A DNA stretch of 40,000 nucleotides. It comes from Azotobacter salinestris (GTDB taxonomy: Bacteria > Pseudomonadota > Gammaproteobacteria > Pseudomonadales > Pseudomonadaceae). The DNA lies in contig NZ_CP045302.1 in assembly GCF_009363155.1 (NCBI RefSeq), forward strand, positions 4,563,194 to 4,603,193, in the 5' to 3' direction. Position 1 is the first letter of the stretch; each line of letters opens with the position of its first letter. Below are positions 411 to 32,699 of the stretch, one piece after another. A model generated the notes under the pieces. The model was not told the origin of the DNA and did not search any database. It worked only from the letters and a program-made list of their open reading frames with translations. The position numbers and the translations under genes were made by a program.

Positions 411-894
411 CTGGCTTCTGGAAGGCGCCATCGGGGTGAGGCCCGAATGTTGTTGTCGAACGGTATGGCGAGACGCCCGAAGGGCTCTGCGTGCGCTGTC
501 GTGGGTTTTTTCGTGGGGAAATACAGCATTAATTTATAAATGGTTCATGTTAGGATAAGCGTTTCAAAAGCAAGCGATTCGATCTGTTTCCCTTTTTGAC
601 TCAATGGATTAAGGCCATCCTGCCGCTGTCCTGAAGGGGTAGCTCGGTCAAGTCCTATTATGCTCGCAACTCTGAATTGAAAAGGCCGCGAAAGCGTCTT
701 TTTACAGGATGCTTGTCAGTGGCGCGGCTTTCTGAAAGCATCCCGCAGCTTTTACTTCCAGTGACTCCGGTTCGCTCGGTTCGGGCCTTCGGGCTTCTGC
801 CACCGTGAGGCAGGCATATCCGGCGAATCGCTTTACTGGCTCATCCCAACCCATGTGGCCTTTGGTAGGGGTCACCACTAGGAGAGGAGGCGCC

Positions 895-2817
895 ATGCCC
901 ACCATCACTCTTCCCGACGGCAGTCAACGTGCATTCGATCATCCGGTTTCGGTCGCCGAGGTCGCCCAGTCCATCGGCGCCGGCCTGGCCAAGGCCACCG
1001 TGGCCGGCAAGGTCGACGGCAGGCTGGTCGATGCCTGCGATCTGATCGACCATGATGCGACCCTGCAGATCATCACGCCGAAGGACGAGGAGGGGGTCGA
1101 GATCATCCGCCACTCCTGTGCCCACCTGGTCGGCCATGCGGTCAAGCAGCTGTATCCGACGGCGAAGATGGTGATCGGTCCGGTCATCGAGGAAGGTTTC
1201 TACTACGACATCGCCTACGAGCGTCCCTTCACGCCGGAGGACATGGCGGCCATCGAGCAGCGCATGCGCGAGCTGATCGACAAGGACTACGACGTCATCA
1301 AGAAGATGACCCCGCGCGAGCAGGTGATCGAGGTGTTCAGGTCCCGGGGCGAGGACTACAAGCTGCGCCTGGTCGACGACATGCCCGACGAGCAGGCGAT
1401 GGGGCTGTACTACCACGAGGAATACGTGGACATGTGCCGTGGTCCGCACGTGCCGAACACCCGCTTCCTCAAGGCCTTCAAGCTGACCAAGCTGTCCGGC
1501 GCTTATTGGCGCGGCGACGCCAAGAACGAGCAACTGCAGCGCGTCTACGGTACCGCCTGGGCGGACAAGAAGCAGCTGGCCGCCTACATCCAGCGCATCG
1601 AGGAGGCAGAGAAGCGCGATCATCGCAAGCTCGGCAAGCGCCTCGATCTGTTCCACACCCAGGAAGAAGCGCCGGGCATGGTCTTCTGGCATCCCAATGG
1701 CTGGATCGTCTACCAAGTGCTCGAGCAATACATGCGTACCGTCCAGCGGGAAAACGGCTATCTGGAGATCAAGACGCCGCAGGTGGTCGATCGCGTACTC
1801 TGGGAAAAGTCGGGGCACTGGGCAAACTATGCCGAGAACATGTTCACCACCGAATCGGAAAGCCGCGACTACGCGATCAAGCCGATGAACTGCCCGTGCC
1901 ATGTGCAGGTGTACAACCAGGGGCTGAAGAGCTACCGCGAGCTGCCGCTGCGTCTGGCCGAGTTCGGTGCCTGTCATCGCAACGAGCCGTCGGGTGCGCT
2001 GCACGGCATCATGCGCGTGCGCGGCTTCACCCAGGACGATGCGCACATCTTCTGCACCGAAGAGCAGATGCAGGCCGAGTCCGCCGCTTTCATCAAGCTG
2101 ACTCAACAGGTTTACGCCGACTTCGGCTTCCAGGACATCCAGCTGAAGCTGTCCACCCGTCCGGAAAAGCGCGTCGGTTCCGACGATCTGTGGGATCGTG
2201 CCGAGGGTGCGCTGGCCGCGGCCCTGGAGACTGCCGGCCTGCCCTATGATCTGCAGCCGGGCGAAGGTGCTTTCTACGGCCCGAAGATCGAGTTTTCCCT
2301 GAAGGACTGCCTGGGGCGTGTCTGGCAGTGTGGCACCCTGCAGTTGGACTTCAACCTGCCGGTCCGTCTCGGAGCCGAGTACGTCAGCGAGAACAACGAC
2401 CGCCAGCATCCGGTGATGCTGCACCGGGCGATCCTGGGCTCCTTCGAGCGTTTCATCGGCATCCTGATCGAGCACTACGAAGGCGCTTTCCCGGCCTGGC
2501 TGGCGCCGACTCAGGCGGTGATCATGAACATCACCGACAAGCAGGGCGAATTCGCGCTTGAAGTCGAGCGGATGCTCAATCAAAGCGGTTTTCGTGCCAG
2601 GTCCGACTTGAGAAACGAAAAGATCGGTTTTAAAATCCGCGAGCATACTTTGCTCAAGGTTCCCTATCTCTTGGTGGTCGGAGATCGGGAAGTTGAGACG
2701 CGAGCCGTAGCTGTGCGCACCCGCGAAGGGGTCGATCTGGGCTCGATGCCCGTCGAACAGTTCCGCGAGATGCTGGCGCAGGCGGTAGCCCGGCGTGGTC
2801 GCCAAGAATTGGAGTAA
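895..2817 (+). CDS. thrS: threonyl-tRNA synthetase
   Basis: 640 aa starting [12 protein letters not shown], with TGS, editing and class II core motifs. RBS AGGAGAGGAGG lies upstream of ATG 895. The track ORF start at 805 is an upstream extension. Confidence 0.97.
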
Positions 2818-4057: not shown

Positions 4058-4095
4058 ATAGGGGAAGAGCCTAGTGCTCTTCCCCTATTTCGTAT
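4058..4095 (+). terminator. 13-bp perfect hairpin after rplT (terminator or attenuator ahead of pheS)
   Basis: ATAGGGGAAGAGC-ctagt-GCTCTTCCCCTAT followed by TTCGTAT (weak T-run). A second hairpin lies at 4027..4044 (CACCGGG-ttcg-CCCGGTG). Confidence 0.55.
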
Positions 4096-4099
4096 CTGA

Positions 4100-5227
<1,128 letters not shown>

Positions 5228-5263
5228 GGCCGCAACCGTAATCGAATTCTTTGGGAGAACAGG

Positions 5264-7642
5264 ATGAAATTCAGCGAACAATGGCTGCGGGACTGGGTCA
5301 ATCCGCAGGTGTCCCGCGACGAATTGGTGGCCCGCCTGTCCATGGCCGGTCTCGAGGTCGACAGCGTCACGCCGGTGGCGGGGGCCTTTTCCGGTGTGGT
5401 GGTGGGCGAGATCCTCGCCACCGAGCCGCATCCGGACGCCGACAAGCTGCGCGTCTGCCAGGTGAGCAACGGCAGCGAAACCTTCCAGGTGGTCTGCGGT
5501 GCGCCCAATGCCCGTCCGGGCATCAGGGTCCCCTTCGCCATGATCGGTGCCGTACTCGGTGACGACTTCAAGATCAAGAAGGCCAAGCTGCGTGGTGTGG
5601 AATCCTTCGGCATGCTCTGCTCGGCAGCCGAGCTCAGGATCAGCGAGGAGAACGACGGCCTGCTGGAACTGCCGGCCGATGCGCCGGTAGGGCAGGACAT
5701 CCGCACCTATCTCGATCTGGACGATGCCAGCATCGAGGTGGACCTGACCCCCAACCGTGGCGACTGCCTGTCCCTGGCCGGCCTGGCCCGCGAGGTAGGT
5801 GCCCTCTACGGCGCTCCGGTCGCTCGCCCGTCGGTCGCCAGCGTGCCGCCGGTACATGACGAAGTGCGTCCGGTCGAGGTGCTGGCATCGCAGGCCTGCC
5901 CTCGTTATCTGGGGCGCGTGGTGCGCAACGTCGACCTGTCGCGGCCGACTCCGCAGTGGATGGTCGAGCGCCTGCGCCGCTCCGGTGTTCGCGCCATCGA
6001 CCCGGCGGTCGATGTCACCAACTACGTGATGCTCGAGCTGGGTCAACCGATGCATGCCTTCGATCTTGCCGAGATCCATGGCGGTGTCCGCGTGCGCATG
6101 GCCGAGGAGGGCGAGAAGCTGGTCCTGCTCGACGGCCAGGAGGTCAGCCTGCGTGCCGATACCCTGGTGATCGCCGACCACCAGCGCGCCCTGGCGATCG
6201 CCGGCGTGATGGGCGGCGAACACAGTGGCGTTGCCAAGGGTACCCGTGACCTGTTCCTGGAAAGTGCCTTCTTCGACACCATCGCCATCGCTGGCAAAGC
6301 GCGCTCCTATGGTCTGCACACCGATGCCTCGCACCGCTTCGAGCGCGGTGTCGATTGGCAACTGGCCCGCGAAGCCATGGAGCGTGCCACTGCGCTGCTG
6401 CTGGAGATTGTCGGTGGCGAGCCCGGCCCCATCATCGAGGTGGTCGATCCGTCGAGCCTGCCGCAGGTGGCGCCGATCACCCTGCGTGCCGAGCGCATCG
6501 AGCAGATGCTCGGCCTGCGCATGGAGGCCGCCGAAGTCGAGCGCCTGCTGGTCGCACTGGGGCTGACGGTCAGCTCCACTGCGGCCAGCCAGTGGCAGGT
6601 TGGGGTGCCCAGCCATCGTTTCGATATCGGTCTCGAAGTGGATCTGATCGAGGAGCTCGGCCGCCTGCATGGCTACAACAACCTGCCGGTCCGCTATCCG
6701 CAGGCACGCCTGGCACCGCAGGCGCGTGCCGAGGCCCGCGGTGAACTGCCGGTGCTGCGCCGTCTGCTGGTCGCGCGCGGCTACCAGGAGGCGATCACCT
6801 ACAGCTTCATCGATCCCAAGCTGTTCGAGCTCTTCACTCCGGGCGTCGAGCCGCTGGCCCTGGCCAATCCGATTTCCGCGGACATGGCGGTCATGCGGGC
6901 CTCGCTCTGGCCTGGACTGCTCAAGGCGCTGCAGTACAACCTGAACCGCCAGCAGTCCCGCGTGCGTCTGTTCGAGAGCGGCCTGCGTTTCGTCGGTCGG
7001 CTGGACAACCTCAAGCAGGAGCCCGTGCTGGCTGGCGTCATCACCGGCAGCCGTCTGCCGGAAAGCTGGAGCCATGGCCGGGATGCGGTGGACTTCTACG
7101 ATGCCAAGGCGGATGTGGAGGCTCTGCTTGCCACCGCCGGCGCCGCCGACGAATATCGTTTCGTCAGTGGCGAGCATCCTGCGCTACATCCGGGGCAGAC
7201 CGCACGGATCGAGCGCAAGGGACGTCTGGTCGGCTTCCTGGGTGCCCTGCATCCCGAACTGGGCAAGGCGCTGGGGTTGGATCAGCCGGTCTTCCTGTTC
7301 GAGCTGGTCCTGGCGGAAATCGCTGCCGGTCGCCTGCCGGCTTTCCGCGAGCTTTCGCGCTTCCCCGAGGTGCGCCGCGATCTCGCGCTGATCGTCGATT
7401 GCGATACTCCGGCAGAGGCGGTGCTGCAGGCCATTCGCGAGGCGGCAGGGGAATATCTGACCGACCTGCGTCTGTTCGATGTGTATCAGGGTAAAGGTAT
7501 TGATCCGCAACGAAAAAGCCTGGCTGTCGGCTTGACCTGGCAACATCCATCGCGCACTCTTAACGATGATGAGGTGAACAGTACAACCCAGAACATCCTC
7601 ACCTCGCTGGAAGAAAGGTTCAATGCGACGTTAAGGAAGTAG
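5264..7642 (+). CDS. pheT: phenylalanyl-tRNA synthetase beta subunit
   Basis: 792 aa, [14 protein letters not shown]..., with tRNA-binding, B3/4, B5 and FDX-ACB regions recognisable. Confidence 0.97.
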
Positions 7643-7647
7643 CGTAT

Positions 7648-7950
7648 ATGGGGGCTCTGACGAAAGCTGAGATGGCAGAACGTCTCTACGAGGAGCTTGG
7701 CCTGAATAAACGAGAAGCCAAGGAATTGGTGGAGCTGTTCTTCGAGGAAATCCGCCAGGCACTGGAGCACAACGAGCAGGTCAAATTGTCCGGTTTCGGC
7801 AATTTCGACCTGCGCGACAAGCGCCAGCGGCCTGGTCGCAACCCCAAGACGGGGGAGGAAATCCCGATCACGGCACGGCGTGTCGTCACCTTTCGTCCAG
7901 GGCAGAAGCTGAAAGCCAGGGTTGAAGCCTATGCTGGAACCAAGCCATAA
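7648..7950 (+). CDS. ihfA: integration host factor alpha subunit
   Basis: 100 aa, ...[26 protein letters not shown]..., the canonical IHF/HU fold signature. Confidence 0.96.
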
Positions 7951-8366: not shown

Positions 8367-8444
<78 letters not shown>

Positions 8445-8522: not shown

Positions 8523-9692
8523 TTATCCCTGCCTCCTTTTCAGGATCGTCAGCGCCGGAGCGCGACTGTCGGTTGCTGATACCTTGTTCGCCGCATCAAT
8601 CAGCTGGTCGAGTTCTGCCGCCGAATAGTGGCTGGTGATGCTTCCATTCTTGTGGCCCAATAGGGCCTTCCTGTCCTCCTCGGTTACGCCTGCCGCCCTA
8701 AGCCGTCTGCCAAACGTATGCTTTAGGTCGTGGATGCGTATCGAGGCGAATCCTGGGTGAGCCGGCGTCTTGTGGATCTCCTCCCACTTGGCAGCCGACC
8801 TAACCCTGGCCTTCCTCCAGGCGCTGTCGTTCATCCGGTGGACTGCAGTTGGCCCGAACTGGTCTGGATTTCCGTAGGGGAACACCAGTGATGGGTGTAG
8901 GCCGCGCTGCCCATCAATCACCCGCCTGGCTACGTCATTCAGAACGACAAGACGCTCGTCGCGGTTCTTAACGCCAGACTGCTCACGCCTCCCACCGAAT
9001 TCTGCCGGGATCAGGAAAACGCTGGTCCCGAGTTCTGGCACGGCGATTTCCCATTCCCACCTGAGCTTGCAAACCTCCTGCTCTCGGCACCCGGTGTTAA
9101 CCTTGTACAAGGCCATTCTCCGAAGGTGGTCGGGAAGCTCCGCGAACAGCAGGCTCTGTTCCTCCCACGACAGCGGGTACGGTTTTCGGCTGGCCCGCTT
9201 CTCATCCAGTTTGGCGATCATCGGCACTGTGTCGAGCCACGGTTTGCTGTTGTCGTCCCGCCACTTCCTAGCGCACAGGTTCAGGATCCTGATTACCCTC
9301 TCCAGCGCGATGTTCACCGTCCTGTTCGACGCTCCGCCTTGGAGCTTGTCCTTTATGTAGGGAGCCAAGGACCTGTCATCTATGCGGGACAGTGGTAGAT
9401 CGCCTATGTACGAGTCGAGCTGCTCCAGGTAGATCGCCGTCAGCCAGATGGAAGGCTGGTTCTGGAACTCGATCAGATAGCGGGTTGCGGCCTCCTGCCA
9501 CTGGATGACAGGGCGAACCCCGTACACTTTTTCCTGCCGCAACTGCTCCAGCCGATGGATCAGGTACTGCTCTGCTTCTTCCCGGTCACAAGTTCCAGTG
9601 CTTTCCTGAATCCGTTCTCCTTTGTACCTTTTGTCGATTTTCCAGATGCCGTTCGGCATTTTCTGGAGCCCTGAGATTGTTTTTCGCGCCAT
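8523..9692 (-). CDS. int: tyrosine-type phage integrase
   Basis: 389 aa. C-terminal catalytic signature ...IRIHDLKHTFGRRLRAAGV...LLGHKNGSITSHYS (R..HxxR..Y). Adjacent to the tRNA. Confidence 0.95.
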   Translation of the reverse strand: MARKTISGLQKMPNGIWKIDKRYKGERIQESTGTCDREEAEQYLIHRLEQLRQEKVYGVRPVIQWQEAATRYLIEFQNQPSIWLTAIYLEQLDSYIGDLPLSRIDDRSLAPYIKDKLQGGASNRTVNIALERVIRILNLCARKWRDDNSKPWLDTVPMIAKLDEKRASRKPYPLSWEEQSLLFAELPDHLRRMALYKVNTGCREQEVCKLRWEWEIAVPELGTSVFLIPAEFGGRREQSGVKNRDERLVVLNDVARRVIDGQRGLHPSLVFPYGNPDQFGPTAVHRMNDSAWRKARVRSAAKWEEIHKTPAHPGFASIRIHDLKHTFGRRLRAAGVTEEDRKALLGHKNGSITSHYSAAELDQLIDAANKVSATDSRAPALTILKRRQG

Positions 9693-22903: not shown

Positions 22904-23149
22904 TCAGTCAGAGGTAGGGGCTGTCCAGGTCAGATGTACGGCGCCGTCCTCGCGCTTGGCCATCGTTACTGATTCCTCGTCGGCGAGATCCTCAAGTAGC
23001 TGTTCCCAGGCGTCCAGGGGTTCCTCTGGCAGCCGGCTGACCAGGACACATCGGCTGGCCTGAGCCCTAGGACTGAGAATCTGCTTCTTGATTCGCAGGG
23101 CGAGGAGTTCATAGGGGGTTGGTGTGCGGGGTAGTGCTTTACGTGCCAT
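22904..23149 (-). CDS. small SOS-box-controlled protein, paralog 1 (81 aa)
   Basis: RBS AAGGAGA. Paralogous to 23321..23572 (YEL...RI.K.I.SP.AQ....V...RLP.EP.D.W...LE..A..E...............V.LTWT.P). LexA box lies 24 nt upstream. Confidence 0.75.
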   Translation of the reverse strand: MARKALPRTPTPYELLALRIKKQILSPRAQASRCVLVSRLPEEPLDAWEQLLEDLADEESVTMAKREDGAVHLTWTAPTSD

Positions 23150-23320: not shown

Positions 23321-23572
23321 CTACTCGGCCGGAACGGTCCAGGTAAGCCGGACGCCATCTCCGCCGACGTGCTGGACCTTGACGTTCTCGGCTTCCGCAA
23401 CCTCTTCGAGGAAGCGCGCCCAATCAGCCGCTGGCTCATCTGGCAGGCGGTGGACTGTCACGTCCCTGGCCTGCTGCGCCTTTGGCGAGTTGATGATCTT
23501 CTGGATGCGGGCGCCCATCAGCTCATAGCTGGACGGCTGGCGGACGGCGGTTTTCTTGGCTGGCTTGGCCAT
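23321..23572 (-). CDS. small SOS-box-controlled protein, paralog 2 (83 aa)
   Basis: Paralog of 22904..23149. LexA box lies 16 nt upstream of the ATG. Confidence 0.75.
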   Translation of the reverse strand: MAKPAKKTAVRQPSSYELMGARIQKIINSPKAQQARDVTVHRLPDEPAADWARFLEEVAEAENVKVQHVGGDGVRLTWTVPAE

Positions 23573-23603: not shown

Positions 23604-23748
23604 TATAAGGGGTGCCAGGGGGAGAGGTGGAGTAGCTGCGGACGGCCGAAGGGCGTGAACCAGGTAGAGCTTTGAGCGCGTCGCTATGGCGCGGCTAAAG
23701 GCAGCTGCTACCTTTGGTTAATCGATTCTGCCAAGGAGGGTGACGACG

Positions 23749-24006
23749 ATGATCAACTCAATCCTTTCTCTTCTGCTCGCAGGTGGCCTGCTGACTACTG
23801 GTGGCTGTCTGGCCGCCATGAGTTCGCATGGCCAAGATCTGGATGCTTTAGACGATGATGAGCTGCTTGATGGCTTAGGCGATCTCACCCCCAGGGAGCG
23901 GAGGAGGCGCCTGGCGGTATACCGGCGGCGTGTGCGCGATCAGATCGCCGAGGAGCAGGAGATGGCTTGGGTACGGGCGCGGATTAAGGGGTACGTGGGG
24001 GACTGA
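23749..24006 (+). CDS. small exported or membrane-anchored protein (85 aa, possible lipoprotein)
   Basis: ATG 23749 lies 9 nt after AAGGAGG. Begins MINSILSLLLAGGLLTTGGC. The charged C-terminus is D/E/R-rich. The track GTG at 23740 has no spacer to the SD. Confidence 0.65.
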   Translation: MINSILSLLLAGGLLTTGGCLAAMSSHGQDLDALDDDELLDGLGDLTPRERRRRLAVYRRRVRDQIAEEQEMAWVRARIKGYVGD

Positions 24007-24010
24007 AACG

Positions 24011-24030
24011 AAAAGCCCCGCGCGGGGATT
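24011..24030. terminator. bidirectional terminator between convergent genes
   Basis: AAAA-GCCCCGCGCGGGG-ATT. In minus sense the hairpin is followed by CTTTTCGTTT. Confidence 0.65.
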
Positions 24031-24043
24031 GGATTGCTTAGCA

Positions 24044-24502
24044 TCAAAGTGATTTCCTGCAAATATTGATTATTATGGTGCTTATGGTCGCAACCTGAAT
24101 TACGCTGTTTGTTGCAAGCGAGAGTGCGGACCGCATAAATATCTCTGCGGAAGCTGATGCTAGAGTAAGTAGCGAGGCTCCAAATGTTAGCGCCAATGTA
24201 ATTATGCAGTAAAAGTAAATAATGAAGAAAATATCTAGGTATTTGTTATTTTTGTATTTTTTGAATGTCGTTGATTGTGAAAAGTTCAAAAGGATAGCGA
24301 TTACTGCAGCCAAGAACCCAAGCATTGTGAATGCGTAGGTTGCGAGTATTACGGCAACATTTGGCCTTTGTGCGAATAGGCTGACTGAGTTCTCAGGGGC
24401 TGAGCTTATAACGATTTTGTAAATCAGCAGCAAGATTGGCCCAGGTATGGACATCAGAAAAACGAAGAATACGGCTAAAGTCCACTTTGTTAGTTTGTCC
24501 AT
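24044..24502 (-). CDS. rexB: RexB-like four-helix membrane protein (152 aa)
   Basis: Four hydrophobic segments. AT-rich codon usage. Immediately downstream of the RexA-like gene in the cI operon position. From memory, size, topology and local similarity resemble lambda RexB (ILATYAFTMLGFLAAVIAIL vs LSSYAGTMIAILIAALTFL). Confidence 0.6.
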   Translation of the reverse strand: MDKLTKWTLAVFFVFLMSIPGPILLLIYKIVISSAPENSVSLFAQRPNVAVILATYAFTMLGFLAAVIAILLNFSQSTTFKKYKNNKYLDIFFIIYFYCIITLALTFGASLLTLASASAEIFMRSALSLATNSVIQVATISTIIINICRKSL

Positions 24503-25343
24503 TTTCTGTGAAGGCCTTTAGCTGTTCCTGTAGTTGGTTGTTTTCTCTAATTTTTTCCTCGATTATTCCGGGTATATCTTTTTCGTCACGAGATCCAAGG
24601 TCATCAGAAATCACTCCTTTCCCTGCTACGTAAATATCTAGCATAGCAGAAGATGCATCATTTTTTGCTTTGATCATAAACTTTTCAAGGCCATCGCTTG
24701 ATGTGGCCTCAACAACCTTTTCAATTAATGGCTTAATGCTGCGCATTCTTCTTGGCTTCAAAATAATCTCTATGGATTCCAGCTCTTCTGTGTCAGCTTC
24801 GCCAGTAAATACATTGAGAAAATGCTTGGCGAGAGTGTTTTTTTGTGTCACCTCGATGGTTGTTCTTCCTATGTATTCCATCTTGACGGCTTGTTCTTTG
24901 GTTGCCTGGTAAATCAATGGCTTAATGCAAAAGCTCCAGCTGCCATTTTCAGTATAGTTAAGGAGTTCATTTATTAGGTTTGTAAATGCATCGAATTTTG
25001 GGGAGAGTGACGTTGATGAAAACCCGAAGTAATATTCTTTGAGTATGATGTAAGAGGCAAAGCCAATTTTTTCGTCTTGCCCAAGTATTTTATTTATTTC
25101 GCTGATTGATAGGTTTGTGGTATTGATTTTTTTGAACTTCTCACTGTCACGCGTCATGATTAGCACGCAGACATTTCCTAGAAGCCTCTGTAGGTAGATG
25201 TGCTCGCCGTTGTGTCTAAAGCTGCCTTTGAATTGAGGGCTGTCAAATTCTGCAAATGAAGACAAAAATCCTGATAAGTCTATTAAGTGAGACTCGTTAG
25301 AGATTTTGTGTTGCAAGTAATATCCAAAATAGCTAATCTTCAT
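24393..25343 (-). CDS. rexA: RexA-like protein (316 aa)
   Basis: AT-rich ORF with RBS AAAGG. Co-linear motif matches to lambda RexA as I remember it: IDLSGFLSS/INLSVFLNS, KIGFASY/SLGFPSF, IKPL..(11)..YIGRTTIEV/IEPL..(11)..FIGRTTVKV, IEIILKPRRMRSIK/LDIVIKPKFKRDIK. The 3' end overlaps rexB-like by 110 nt. Confidence 0.65.
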   Translation of the reverse strand: MKISYFGYYLQHKISNESHLIDLSGFLSSFAEFDSPQFKGSFRHNGEHIYLQRLLGNVCVLIMTRDSEKFKKINTTNLSISEINKILGQDEKIGFASYIILKEYYFGFSSTSLSPKFDAFTNLINELLNYTENGSWSFCIKPLIYQATKEQAVKMEYIGRTTIEVTQKNTLAKHFLNVFTGEADTEELESIEIILKPRRMRSIKPLIEKVVEATSSDGLEKFMIKAKNDASSAMLDIYVAGKGVISDDLGSRDEKDIPGIIEEKIRENNQLQEQLKAFTENGQTNKVDFSRILRFSDVHTWANLAADLQNRYKLSP

Positions 25344-25433
25344 TTTGACCTTTTTTCATTAAAAGCTAACAAAGCTTATGTTTTGTGCGCGTAACTTTCT
25401 CGGGGTTGGTGTATTTTTTGTGACCTCTTTAAT

Positions 25434-25583
25434 TTATTTACATAAGCTCTCACACGGCACCCCATCCCCATCCCCATCCCCATTCCGATCCAGCCGGCCA
25501 TTCCCGCACTCGTTCAGGTGAAACTCAGCCCCTCCCAACTTCTCATCAGCAAGCGGGGCGGCGACGAACAGCTTTGATCGCAT
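25434..25583 (-). CDS. 49-aa micro-ORF with an Excalibur-type calcium-binding motif
   Basis: ATG 25583 preceded by AAGGAAG. Encodes ...ECGNGRLDRNGDGDGDGVPCESLCK. DGDGDGVPCE fits DxDxDGxxCE. The GDGDGDG run is encoded by the (CCCCAT)4 repeat. Below the track cutoff. Confidence 0.45.
   Translation of the reverse strand: MRSKLFVAAPLADEKLGGAEFHLNECGNGRLDRNGDGDGDGVPCESLCK
25460..25483. repeat. (CCCCAT)x4 hexamer repeat, which is (ATGGGG)x4 on the minus strand
   Basis: Perfect 4-unit tandem repeat at the GC-rich/AT-rich junction. Four G4 tracts in the minus-sense transcript. Confidence 0.9.
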
Positions 25584-25681: not shown

Positions 25682-26377
25682 TCAGAGCACGCCTTTTGGC
25701 GCCTTCATGTCGATAACTCGACCAATCACGTCCCAGTTGTCGTCCATCTCGACCTGCTTGAATTCCTTGTTCAGCGGGACCAGGTACTCGCGCCCGCCAT
25801 CGTAGATGTACTGCTTGAACGTCGTTTCGCCGTCGCGGTGCTTGGCGACGTAAAACTTGCCGCTGACCAGGTCGAATCCTTCCGGACGCACCAGAATCCG
25901 CGTTCCTTCGGGGAAGCTGGGAGAGCCAGGCGCGGTCATGGATGGGCCCTTGACGACCAGCCAGTAGCCGTCCTGCCCGGCGTTTTCTGTCGACGGCAGC
26001 CACTCTTCCGGTGCCTGACGGCTGAAGTTCTCCGGCGATTCTGCGCGCTGGCCGGCGATGACCCAACTGATCACCGGGTAGTCGCGCAGGCTGCGGGATG
26101 GCTGCAGCGCTAGCTCAACATTCTGGTGGCGCTGAGGGGGCTGCTGTATCGATAGCGCCTCAATCCCGAGTGCACTGAGCATTGCGTTGATGTCAGCCAG
26201 TCCAGGCTCACGGCGGCCATTCAACCAATGCGCGATTGCGCCTTGGGTTTTCCCAATACGTTCGGCCAGTTGGGCTTGGGTTACGCGCTGCTGCGCCATA
26301 GCGCTTCGCACGGCTTTGATCCATTCATCCATGGGCGAAATGCTACAGCCCGTATTAATTTGCGCAACGCACGGCAT
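25682..26377 (-). CDS. cI: lambda cI-like prophage repressor (HTH-XRE plus S24 LexA-like autopeptidase)
   Basis: HTH is QRVTQAQLAERIGKTQGAIAHWLNGRREP. The C-terminal domain WLVVKGPSMTAPGSPSFPEGTRILVRPEG...GETTFKQYIYDGGREYLVPLN is close to the lambda cI CTD (Ser in GPSM, Lys in TFKQ). An Ala-Gly is present (VIAGQ). Alternative start at ATG 26332. Confidence 0.92.
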   Translation of the reverse strand: MPCVAQINTGCSISPMDEWIKAVRSAMAQQRVTQAQLAERIGKTQGAIAHWLNGRREPGLADINAMLSALGIEALSIQQPPQRHQNVELALQPSRSLRDYPVISWVIAGQRAESPENFSRQAPEEWLPSTENAGQDGYWLVVKGPSMTAPGSPSFPEGTRILVRPEGFDLVSGKFYVAKHRDGETTFKQYIYDGGREYLVPLNKEFKQVEMDDNWDVIGRVIDMKAPKGVL

Positions 26378-26445: not shown

Positions 26446-26682
26446 ATGAGCGCCTTGAAAACCATCCGCAAGCAGACGGGTGTAACTCAAACCCAACTGG
26501 CTGAGCGTGTGGGGCTTACTCAGGCCGCCATCGGTCACTACGAGACAGGTCGGCGTAAGCCTGGGCTGAGCGAATGCCGTCGCATCGTCGCGGCGCTGAA
26601 TTCGTTCGGAGTTGACTGCTGCCTTGCAGACGTCTTTCCAGAGCCAATCCAAGAGCAGGACCCTGCTCAGTCGGTGGCCTAG
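26446..26682 (+). CDS. cro: Cro-like HTH (XRE family) regulator
   Basis: 78 aa, divergent from cI. RBS GGAGAA. HTH is VTQTQLAERVGLTQAAIGHYETGRRKP. Confidence 0.85.
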   Translation: MSALKTIRKQTGVTQTQLAERVGLTQAAIGHYETGRRKPGLSECRRIVAALNSFGVDCCLADVFPEPIQEQDPAQSVA

Positions 26683-26684
26683 CC

Positions 26685-26996
26685 ATGGCCACGACTCAAT
26701 TAAGCCCTGAGCAGGACGCAAGGGCACGAGAGTTCGAATCGCTGATCTTGAGCCAGCTTCTGTCGGTCGGGCAGAAGCATGTGGCTGACGCAATCGCTGT
26801 CAGCGAATCGACGGTAAGCCGCTGGAAAGAGGGCGAGATAGAGCGGTGGAGCAAGGTGATTTCACTGCTTGGCCTCCAGCTCGTACCGCAGCACGCGGTC
26901 GTAGTGAGCGCCGATTACCTGCGCTCTCTGGAAACCCTGGCAGAGCTTGGCCTGAAGGCTGAGAAGAAGCGTCCAGGCCCGCTGGGGTGGGACTGA
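26685..26996 (+). CDS. cII: CII-like transcriptional activator
   Basis: 103 aa, positioned after cro. GQKHVADAIAVSESTVSRWKEGEIERWSKVISLLG matches the phage CII HTH pattern. Confidence 0.8.
   Translation: MATTQLSPEQDARAREFESLILSQLLSVGQKHVADAIAVSESTVSRWKEGEIERWSKVISLLGLQLVPQHAVVVSADYLRSLETLAELGLKAEKKRPGPLGWD

Positions 26997-32624: not shown

Positions 32625-32699
<75 letters not shown>

Follow-up and report, generated by a model that had tools for sequence, protein, structure and literature searches.

The RexA-RexB pair of phage lambda is the oldest known abortive-infection system. Roles have been assigned to several residues of lambda RexA: R219 and K221 contact DNA, G140-K143 form a hinge, residues 239-244 make up a swivel loop, and D215 pairs with R261 (PMC11077077). 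Lambda Rex is also known to be sensitive to the RexA:RexB stoichiometry (PMC12894663). Here we describe a two-gene cassette of Azotobacter salinestris, found in a 40,000-nucleotide (nt) stretch of contig NZ_CP045302.1 that is called the window throughout. An earlier note on this DNA had proposed a RexA/RexB-like exclusion module at this place. Our results point in the same direction. With a probability of roughly three in four, the locus is a RexA-RexB phage-exclusion (abortive-infection) module, an AT-rich 'moron' or accessory cassette that a lambdoid prophage bears in its immunity region.

Five Rex-like systems are counted as characterised (PMC12894663). RexABpp of the P. putida prophage P1 (PP_5643/PP_5644; Rosendahl et al. 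2026, PMC12894663), is a two-gene module of a Pseudomonadaceae prophage, like the present one. It lies downstream of a cI-like repressor, with small open reading frames (ORFs) between, and pairs a soluble DNA-binding RexA-like protein with a partner that has four transmembrane (TM) segments (PMC12894663). Phage defence by RexABpp has been shown experimentally and needs both genes, and overexpression of RexA leads to RexB-dependent growth arrest and membrane permeabilisation (PMC12894663). The actinobacteriophage systems Sbash gp30/gp31, CarolAnn gp44/gp43 and Butters gp30/gp31 each consist of a soluble and a membrane protein that are expressed from the prophage and encoded near the immunity repressor. 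They exclude heterotypic phages, and their RexA homologues form dimers and show non-specific DNA binding (PMC11077077, PMC12894663). These systems differ from the present one in their far more distant sequences and in being triggered by specific phage proteins; Butters works with a reversed logic (PMC12894663). The Azotobacter/Pseudomonas clade described below is much closer to lambda Rex than RexABpp is.

Homologues of RexA and RexB in the immunity region

The larger gene of the cassette (24393..25343, minus strand) encodes a soluble protein of 316 amino acids (aa) without a TM segment. This protein is a sequence and fold homologue of lambda RexA. More specifically, Pfam family PF15969 matches residues 1-233 with 200 bits (cutoff 25) over profile positions 1-234 of 235, and the PADLOC RexA model matches with 296 bits over positions 1-263 of 267. 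The PHROGs match carries the name 'RexA-like exclusion protein'. BLASTP aligns the protein with lambda RexA at 27% identity over 252 residues (E 3e-24), and a phmmer search against the PDB returned 8twq_A, the lambda RexA chain (E 6e-22). An AlphaFold model was built on 20 homologues and reached a predicted local distance difference test score (pLDDT) of 76.9. The top Foldseek match of this model in the PDB is again lambda RexA, 8TWQ (8twq_B; E 8.9e-16, probability 1.00, template-modelling score about 0.5). RdgC (PDB 2OWL, E 5.6e-3) ranks third, as would be expected, because it is a published fold relative of RexA. This recombination-associated DNA-binding ring is related to RexA by fold only: it lacks both sequence similarity and a membrane partner, and it is a housekeeping protein of the host. 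The RexA assignment made in the earlier note is thus borne out by profile, sequence and fold, and the four motif pairs which it had listed are all correct when compared with the actual lambda RexA sequence.

Several of the residues with a known role in lambda are kept. K225-A226-K227 align with R219-A220-K221 of lambda RexA, and the basic/Ala/Lys pattern is present in 14 of 14 aligned sequences. In the hinge, T148 and K149 correspond to T142 and K143 of lambda, and the swivel-loop segment has the same length in both proteins. By analogy with lambda and with RexABpp of P. putida, the protein would be a cytosolic dimer that binds DNA.

The second gene (24044..24502, minus strand) encodes a 152-aa protein with four predicted TM helices, a homologue of lambda RexB by its sequence. 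The PADLOC RexB model matches with 123.6 bits over positions 3-140 of 141, and BLASTP gives 26% identity to lambda RexB (E 2e-9). The match to Pfam PF15968 is marginal, 28.3 bits against a cutoff of 27. Hydropathy places the TM segments at residues 9-27, 52-70, 91-109 and 127-145, in line with 8-26, 49-67, 84-102 and 116-134 of lambda RexB. The AlphaFold model, with four long helices and pLDDT 84.8, agrees with the hydropathy, so that the four hydrophobic helices of the earlier note are seen in both analyses. The loop between TM2 and TM3 is rich in K and R here as well as in lambda, and therefore both termini of RexB are predicted to be cytoplasmic.

The position of the two genes is also that of lambda. 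Upstream of rexA on the same strand lies a cI-like repressor gene (25682..26377, minus strand; 231 aa, HTH_3 and Peptidase_S24 domains) with 34% identity to lambda cI (E 3e-31). A divergent cro-like helix-turn-helix gene (26446..26682, plus strand) defines the immunity region together with a cII homologue (26685..26996), an O-like protein with a DnaT domain and a homologue of lambda P, which follow in this order. The synteny cI-rexA-rexB opposite cro-cII-O-P is the lambda order, as the earlier note had claimed. The element is a lambdoid prophage integrated beside tRNA-Pro, and the cassette sits at the rexAB position of lambda. Two details of that description needed adjustment. The cassette is downstream of cI on the same strand, but not directly, since 338 nt including a 49-aa ORF separate the genes; in lambda no counterpart of this ORF stands between them. 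The element is indeed a prophage, but its host is better called Azotobacter (family Pseudomonadaceae) than Pseudomonas. The host also distinguishes this clade from lambda, which infects an enterobacterium and not Azotobacter or Pseudomonas.

The cassette and its leader form an AT-rich block (24011..25450) with a GC content of 0.392 (39.2%), as against 0.606 (60.6%) for the whole window (standard deviation 0.042 among 1,440-nt windows). Among all 1,440-nt windows this one has the lowest GC, the minimum falls exactly at 24011, and elsewhere the value is never below 0.559. The edges of the block are sharp, at about 24035 and about 25437. The AT-rich block of the earlier note is therefore real; its estimate of about one third GC was slightly too low. 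The rexAB genes of lambda have a similarly low GC content (0.41 versus 0.39 here).

The overlap of rexA and rexB

The clearest difference from lambda is found at the junction of the two genes. In lambda, RexA has 279 aa and a gap of 15 nt precedes rexB. Here rexB begins 110 nt inside rexA in the +1 frame (24393..24502, minus strand), and the ORF coordinates confirm the overlap of this length that had been noticed earlier. The shared segment encodes the tail of RexA (residues 281-316) and the first 37 residues of RexB, which comprise its N-terminus and TM1. The RexA profile ends at about residue 272, and the end of lambda RexA roughly coincides with the start of rexB. RexA of A. salinestris continues from there for some 37 codons, in the alternative frame of the N-terminus and TM1 of rexB. 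Within this tail residues 298-314 are modelled as a helix with pLDDT 85-92. A later start of RexB at Met17 is disfavoured by the conserved MD(K/R)xTK N-terminus and by the PADLOC alignment, which runs from residue 6; with this start the genes would still overlap by 62 nt.

All 17 of the distinct long-RexA cassettes that were compared, which reach down to 32% identity, share an overlap of 104-143 nt in which rexB is read in the +1 frame. Lambda-type cassettes have gaps of 15-23 nt instead, and one outlier at 25% identity (L011) also has no such overlap. An exhaustive profile search of 1.84 billion representatives returned 290 family members at E ≤ 1e-3, most of them 305-320 aa long, and among these lambda RexA with its 279 aa is a short outlier.

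Does the RexA tail matter to the phage, or is the frame open by chance? This was addressed by keeping the RexB protein fixed and resampling synonymous codons from the cassette's own usage. After resampling, the probability that the RexA frame remained free of stops up to its actual one was 0.04-0.37 per cassette (geometric mean 0.125), while the frame is in fact open in 17 of 17. It is important to note that the cassettes are related and so do not represent 17 independent trials, but their median ungapped nucleotide identity in the overlap is only 0.35. Codon choice in rexB fits the same picture. The Tyr codon in the overlap is TAC in 8 of 8 cassettes, at a cassette usage of 52% TAC; TAT would create TAA in the RexA frame. 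The codon before Gly (GGN) has T as its third base in 8 of 8 cassettes, which keeps a Trp found in all 17 tails. Divergence at third positions of rexB is 0.50 inside the overlap and 0.65 outside it. Because of these stop-avoidance and synonymous-site tests we conclude that the tail is a real and selected part of RexA in the long subfamily.

The overlap is new relative to lambda, and neither the tail nor the overlap is mentioned in PMC12894663 or PMC11077077. The 'overlapping exclusion genes' of P. aeruginosa phage Fc02 were considered and belong to an unrelated system. More tentatively, lambda may be an atypical Rex system. The overprinted helix of about 37 residues would then be required in the majority 'long' subfamily, either because it sets the RexA:RexB ratio (by interference or coupling in translation) or because it docks onto or gates RexB. 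We regard this idea as possible rather than probable. Its corollary is that some published orphan RexA genes would be artefacts of annotation.

Gene calling has indeed treated this overlap badly. In 4 of the 8 cassettes analysed the public gene calls omit rexB, though an intact ORF with four TM segments overlaps the end of rexA (L004 5842..6303, L008 4842..5306, L009 4827..5306 and L010 3730..4191). 'Orphan RexA' genes have been reported (PMC11077077), with loci in Shewanella khirikhana and Salinisphaera sp. NP40, and these may in part result from dropping the overlapping rexB. The clade members are labelled 'hypothetical protein' in RefSeq, including the A. salinestris entries that match our RexA and RexB with 100% identity, because NCBIfam has neither a RexA nor a RexB model. 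A standard defence-system scan, by contrast, should label the locus RexAB, since both PADLOC models match strongly and the genes are adjacent.

Relatives, mode of action and other explanations

Close relatives of the RexA protein, with 52-72% identity and about 316 aa, are encoded by prophages of P. azotoformans, P. syringae and Pseudomonas sp. B392_1p and NFIX28. Each of their cassettes follows an S24 repressor gene opposite a P22_Cro-type gene, and 0-3 unrelated small ORFs stand between repressor and cassette. The layout repressor-rexA-rexB is the same in six Pseudomonas prophage loci. The repressors themselves are not: they are either proteins of 219-231 aa with HTH_3 and S24 domains or proteins of 279-283 aa with an S24 match only. 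A further 15 loci came from IMG/VR, and a scan of genome contigs gave only 2. Across the clade, third codon positions vary at 0.64 and first and second positions at 0.24-0.36, which indicates purifying selection. Cassette GC is 0.35-0.47 in all overlapping cassettes except L022 (0.50, equal to its flank), and the flanks have 0.44-0.64. Low GC is thus shared across the family, lambda included; therefore it is largely a family trait and not evidence of a very recent arrival.

The same family contains two unusual copies. In Pseudomonas entomophila WZ006 (L007, 6001..6669) the RexA homologue has been shortened to 222 aa and there is no RexB-like ORF after it, so that the locus looks like a decayed copy of the cassette. 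On the metagenome scaffold L010, rexAB lies between large inverted repeats (739..2570 and 6032..7848), with a complementarity of 96% over 891 nt and of 81% over 858 nt. Either a true inverted duplication or an error of assembly could explain them.

No known phage can be named as the source of the cassette, because its sequence had no blastn match among 50,697 phage records and megablast of 24 kb of the window gave short patches only, in Pseudomonas phages. At the protein level the same phage collection holds no close relative, only lambda-type RexA proteins of enterobacterial phages with 26-29% identity.

The way in which the module might work follows the better-studied systems. In the lysogen, the cassette would be transcribed together with cI from the maintenance promoter, as in lambda and RexABpp, and the cI-like gene is probably the first in the transcription unit. 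Cotranscription is suggested because a consensus scan found no terminator-like site from cI to rexB. The leader of rexA (25344..25433, minus strand; 90 nt, GC 0.34) has an AGG Shine-Dalgarno-like motif 7-9 nt before the ATG, and no sigma-70-like promoter was called in it. When the upstream leaders of related loci were aligned no conservation was seen, and therefore the cassettes have no shared promoter or boundary repeat. An equivalent of the internal rexB promoter of lambda was rejected as well: inside rexA, upstream of rexB, there are 2 promoter-like sites where 2.7 are expected, which is chance level.

After rexB there is a short GC hairpin with a T-rich tract (24005..24027, minus strand; CCCC-GCGC-GGGG). 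It has a 4-bp CCCC/GGGG stem and a GCGC loop (24016-24027), followed by CUUUUCGUUUC. The earlier note had read this as the cassette's own terminator. The hairpin and the T-rich tract are present, and similar GC hairpins with T tracts stand 3' of rexB in L002, L004 and L006. The consensus terminator scan did not call the site, however, and it folds with no more stability than shuffled sequence (z = 0.76), so that we rejected a clear terminator. A weak one is plausible.

RexA, as a cytosolic DNA-binding dimer, would sense a product or a DNA-protein intermediate of the superinfecting phage and would then activate RexB in the inner membrane. With RexB active, membrane potential or integrity would be lost, ATP would fall and growth would stop, and in this way the infection would be aborted. 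The overlap may add a further element. Ribosomes that finish rexA would cross the start of rexB, so RexB output would be tied to RexA output and probably kept lower, and the RexA tail may share in the docking of RexA and RexB. By analogy with lambda and RexABpp, exclusion or abortive infection by the prophage-expressed cassette would be the most likely function.

Several observations weigh against this reading of the locus. Identity to the lambda proteins is only 26-27%, and therefore trigger specificity is not transferable from lambda. D215 and R261, which pair in lambda RexA, correspond to K221 and N269 here, so that this contact is lost. The RexB model gave no significant match among viral predicted structures: the best Foldseek hit in BFVD was an unnamed siphovirus protein with E 0.04, and no experimental RexB structure turned up for comparison. 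Membership of the 152-aa protein in RexB therefore rests on sequence and topology. The weakness of the hairpin after rexB belongs here too. Finally, AT-rich foreign DNA could be silenced in a Pseudomonadaceae host with 60% GC.

The last point can be carried further. The cassette might be intact but silent or decaying cargo, AT-rich DNA under xenogeneic silencing with no current function in its host, and a GC of 0.39 in a 0.61 genome, the failure to detect a promoter of its own and the decayed copy in P. entomophila all fit such a state. We think it improbable that this describes the A. salinestris cassette. Both ORFs are full length and match their profiles end to end, the excess of third-position variation across the clade speaks of purifying selection, the overlap frame has been kept open in 17 of 17 cassettes, and low GC is a property of the whole family including lambda. 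A mainly regulatory role deserves a little more credit. Lambda RexA also acts in the cI/cro switch (PMC11077077). RexA, with RexB modulating it, would bias the switch to lytic growth after induction, as is reported of lambda, and exclusion would be secondary; the operon position beside a cI homologue and the conserved DNA-contact residues are in favour. Still, we consider it unlikely. The cassette is found behind repressors of unrelated type and length, which makes a specific partnership of RexA and CI unlikely, and RexApp of P. putida has no measurable effect on the expression of the repressor gene (PMC12894663). Strict co-conservation of RexB also points to a membrane effector. Regulatory and defensive roles are not mutually exclusive.

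The logic of the system might also be reversed, as in mycobacteriophage Butters, where the RexA-like protein is toxic and is sequestered by the RexB-like protein until infection. Butters gp30/gp31 is among the five characterised Rex-like systems (PMC12894663), and the additional C-terminal helix of RexA could serve as a tether to RexB. There is very little to recommend this arrangement here: the two proteins show direct sequence homology to RexA and RexB of lambda, and in lambda as in RexABpp the effector role falls to RexB and neither gene is dispensable (PMC12894663). Phage exclusion of the lambda type, with RexB acting at the membrane, is the explanation we prefer.

Prophage surroundings and meaning of the locus

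The window starts with host genes of a ribosomal-protein/thrS cluster (thrS at 805-2817), followed by tRNA-Pro (8368-8444) and the integrase gene (8523-9692). The gene order of the element is tRNA-Pro, integrase, cI/cro/cII/O-like/P, NinB, tRNA-Met and portal. The tRNA-Met gene (32625..32699, plus strand) is part of the prophage and stands after the NinB/KilA-N region, before the portal gene. A 1030-aa ORF (4085..7177, minus strand; third-position GC 0.70) with no match in Pfam, NCBIfam or PADLOC occupies the space from the ribosomal-protein/thrS cluster to tRNA-Pro. PADLOC run on ten further ORFs of the window found no other defence protein.

Around the cassette itself several small genes were observed. 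The 49-aa ORF between cI and rexA (25434..25583, minus strand) is GC-rich and ends in DRNGDGDGDGVPCESLCK; it has a partial match to the Pfam Excalibur calcium-binding domain, with 17.9 bits below the cutoff of 22. Small ORFs between the repressor and rexA vary in number and size across the related loci, and two loci have none. On the other side, an 88-aa ORF (23740..24006, plus strand) is convergent with rexB, and the hairpin region is common to both. The hydrophobic N-terminus of this ORF, followed by Cys (…LLTTGGC…), resembles a lipoprotein signal, and searches of Pfam, PHROGs, NCBIfam and PADLOC gave no match. Just past rexB are two DUF1654 paralogues (23321..23572 and 22904..23149, both minus strand). 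DUF1654 genes also stand beside rexB in two Pseudomonas prophage loci (L005 6910..7221 and L008 5350..5670), which suggests that DUF1654 is a recurrent neighbour of rexB.

Based on the results obtained, we see consequences both for the counting of Rex systems and for their study. Annotation that misses rexB in about half of the loci biases counts of the system and possibly produces false 'orphan RexA' calls. The sensitivity to the RexA:RexB ratio could be probed cheaply by experiment in the conserved dual-coding overlap, with mutations that are silent in one of the two frames. The locus adds an uncharacterised clade of Pseudomonadaceae that is nearer to lambda than the sole characterised Pseudomonas system. 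With this closeness, the structural and genetic knowledge gathered in lambda transfers more directly to a Pseudomonadaceae host.

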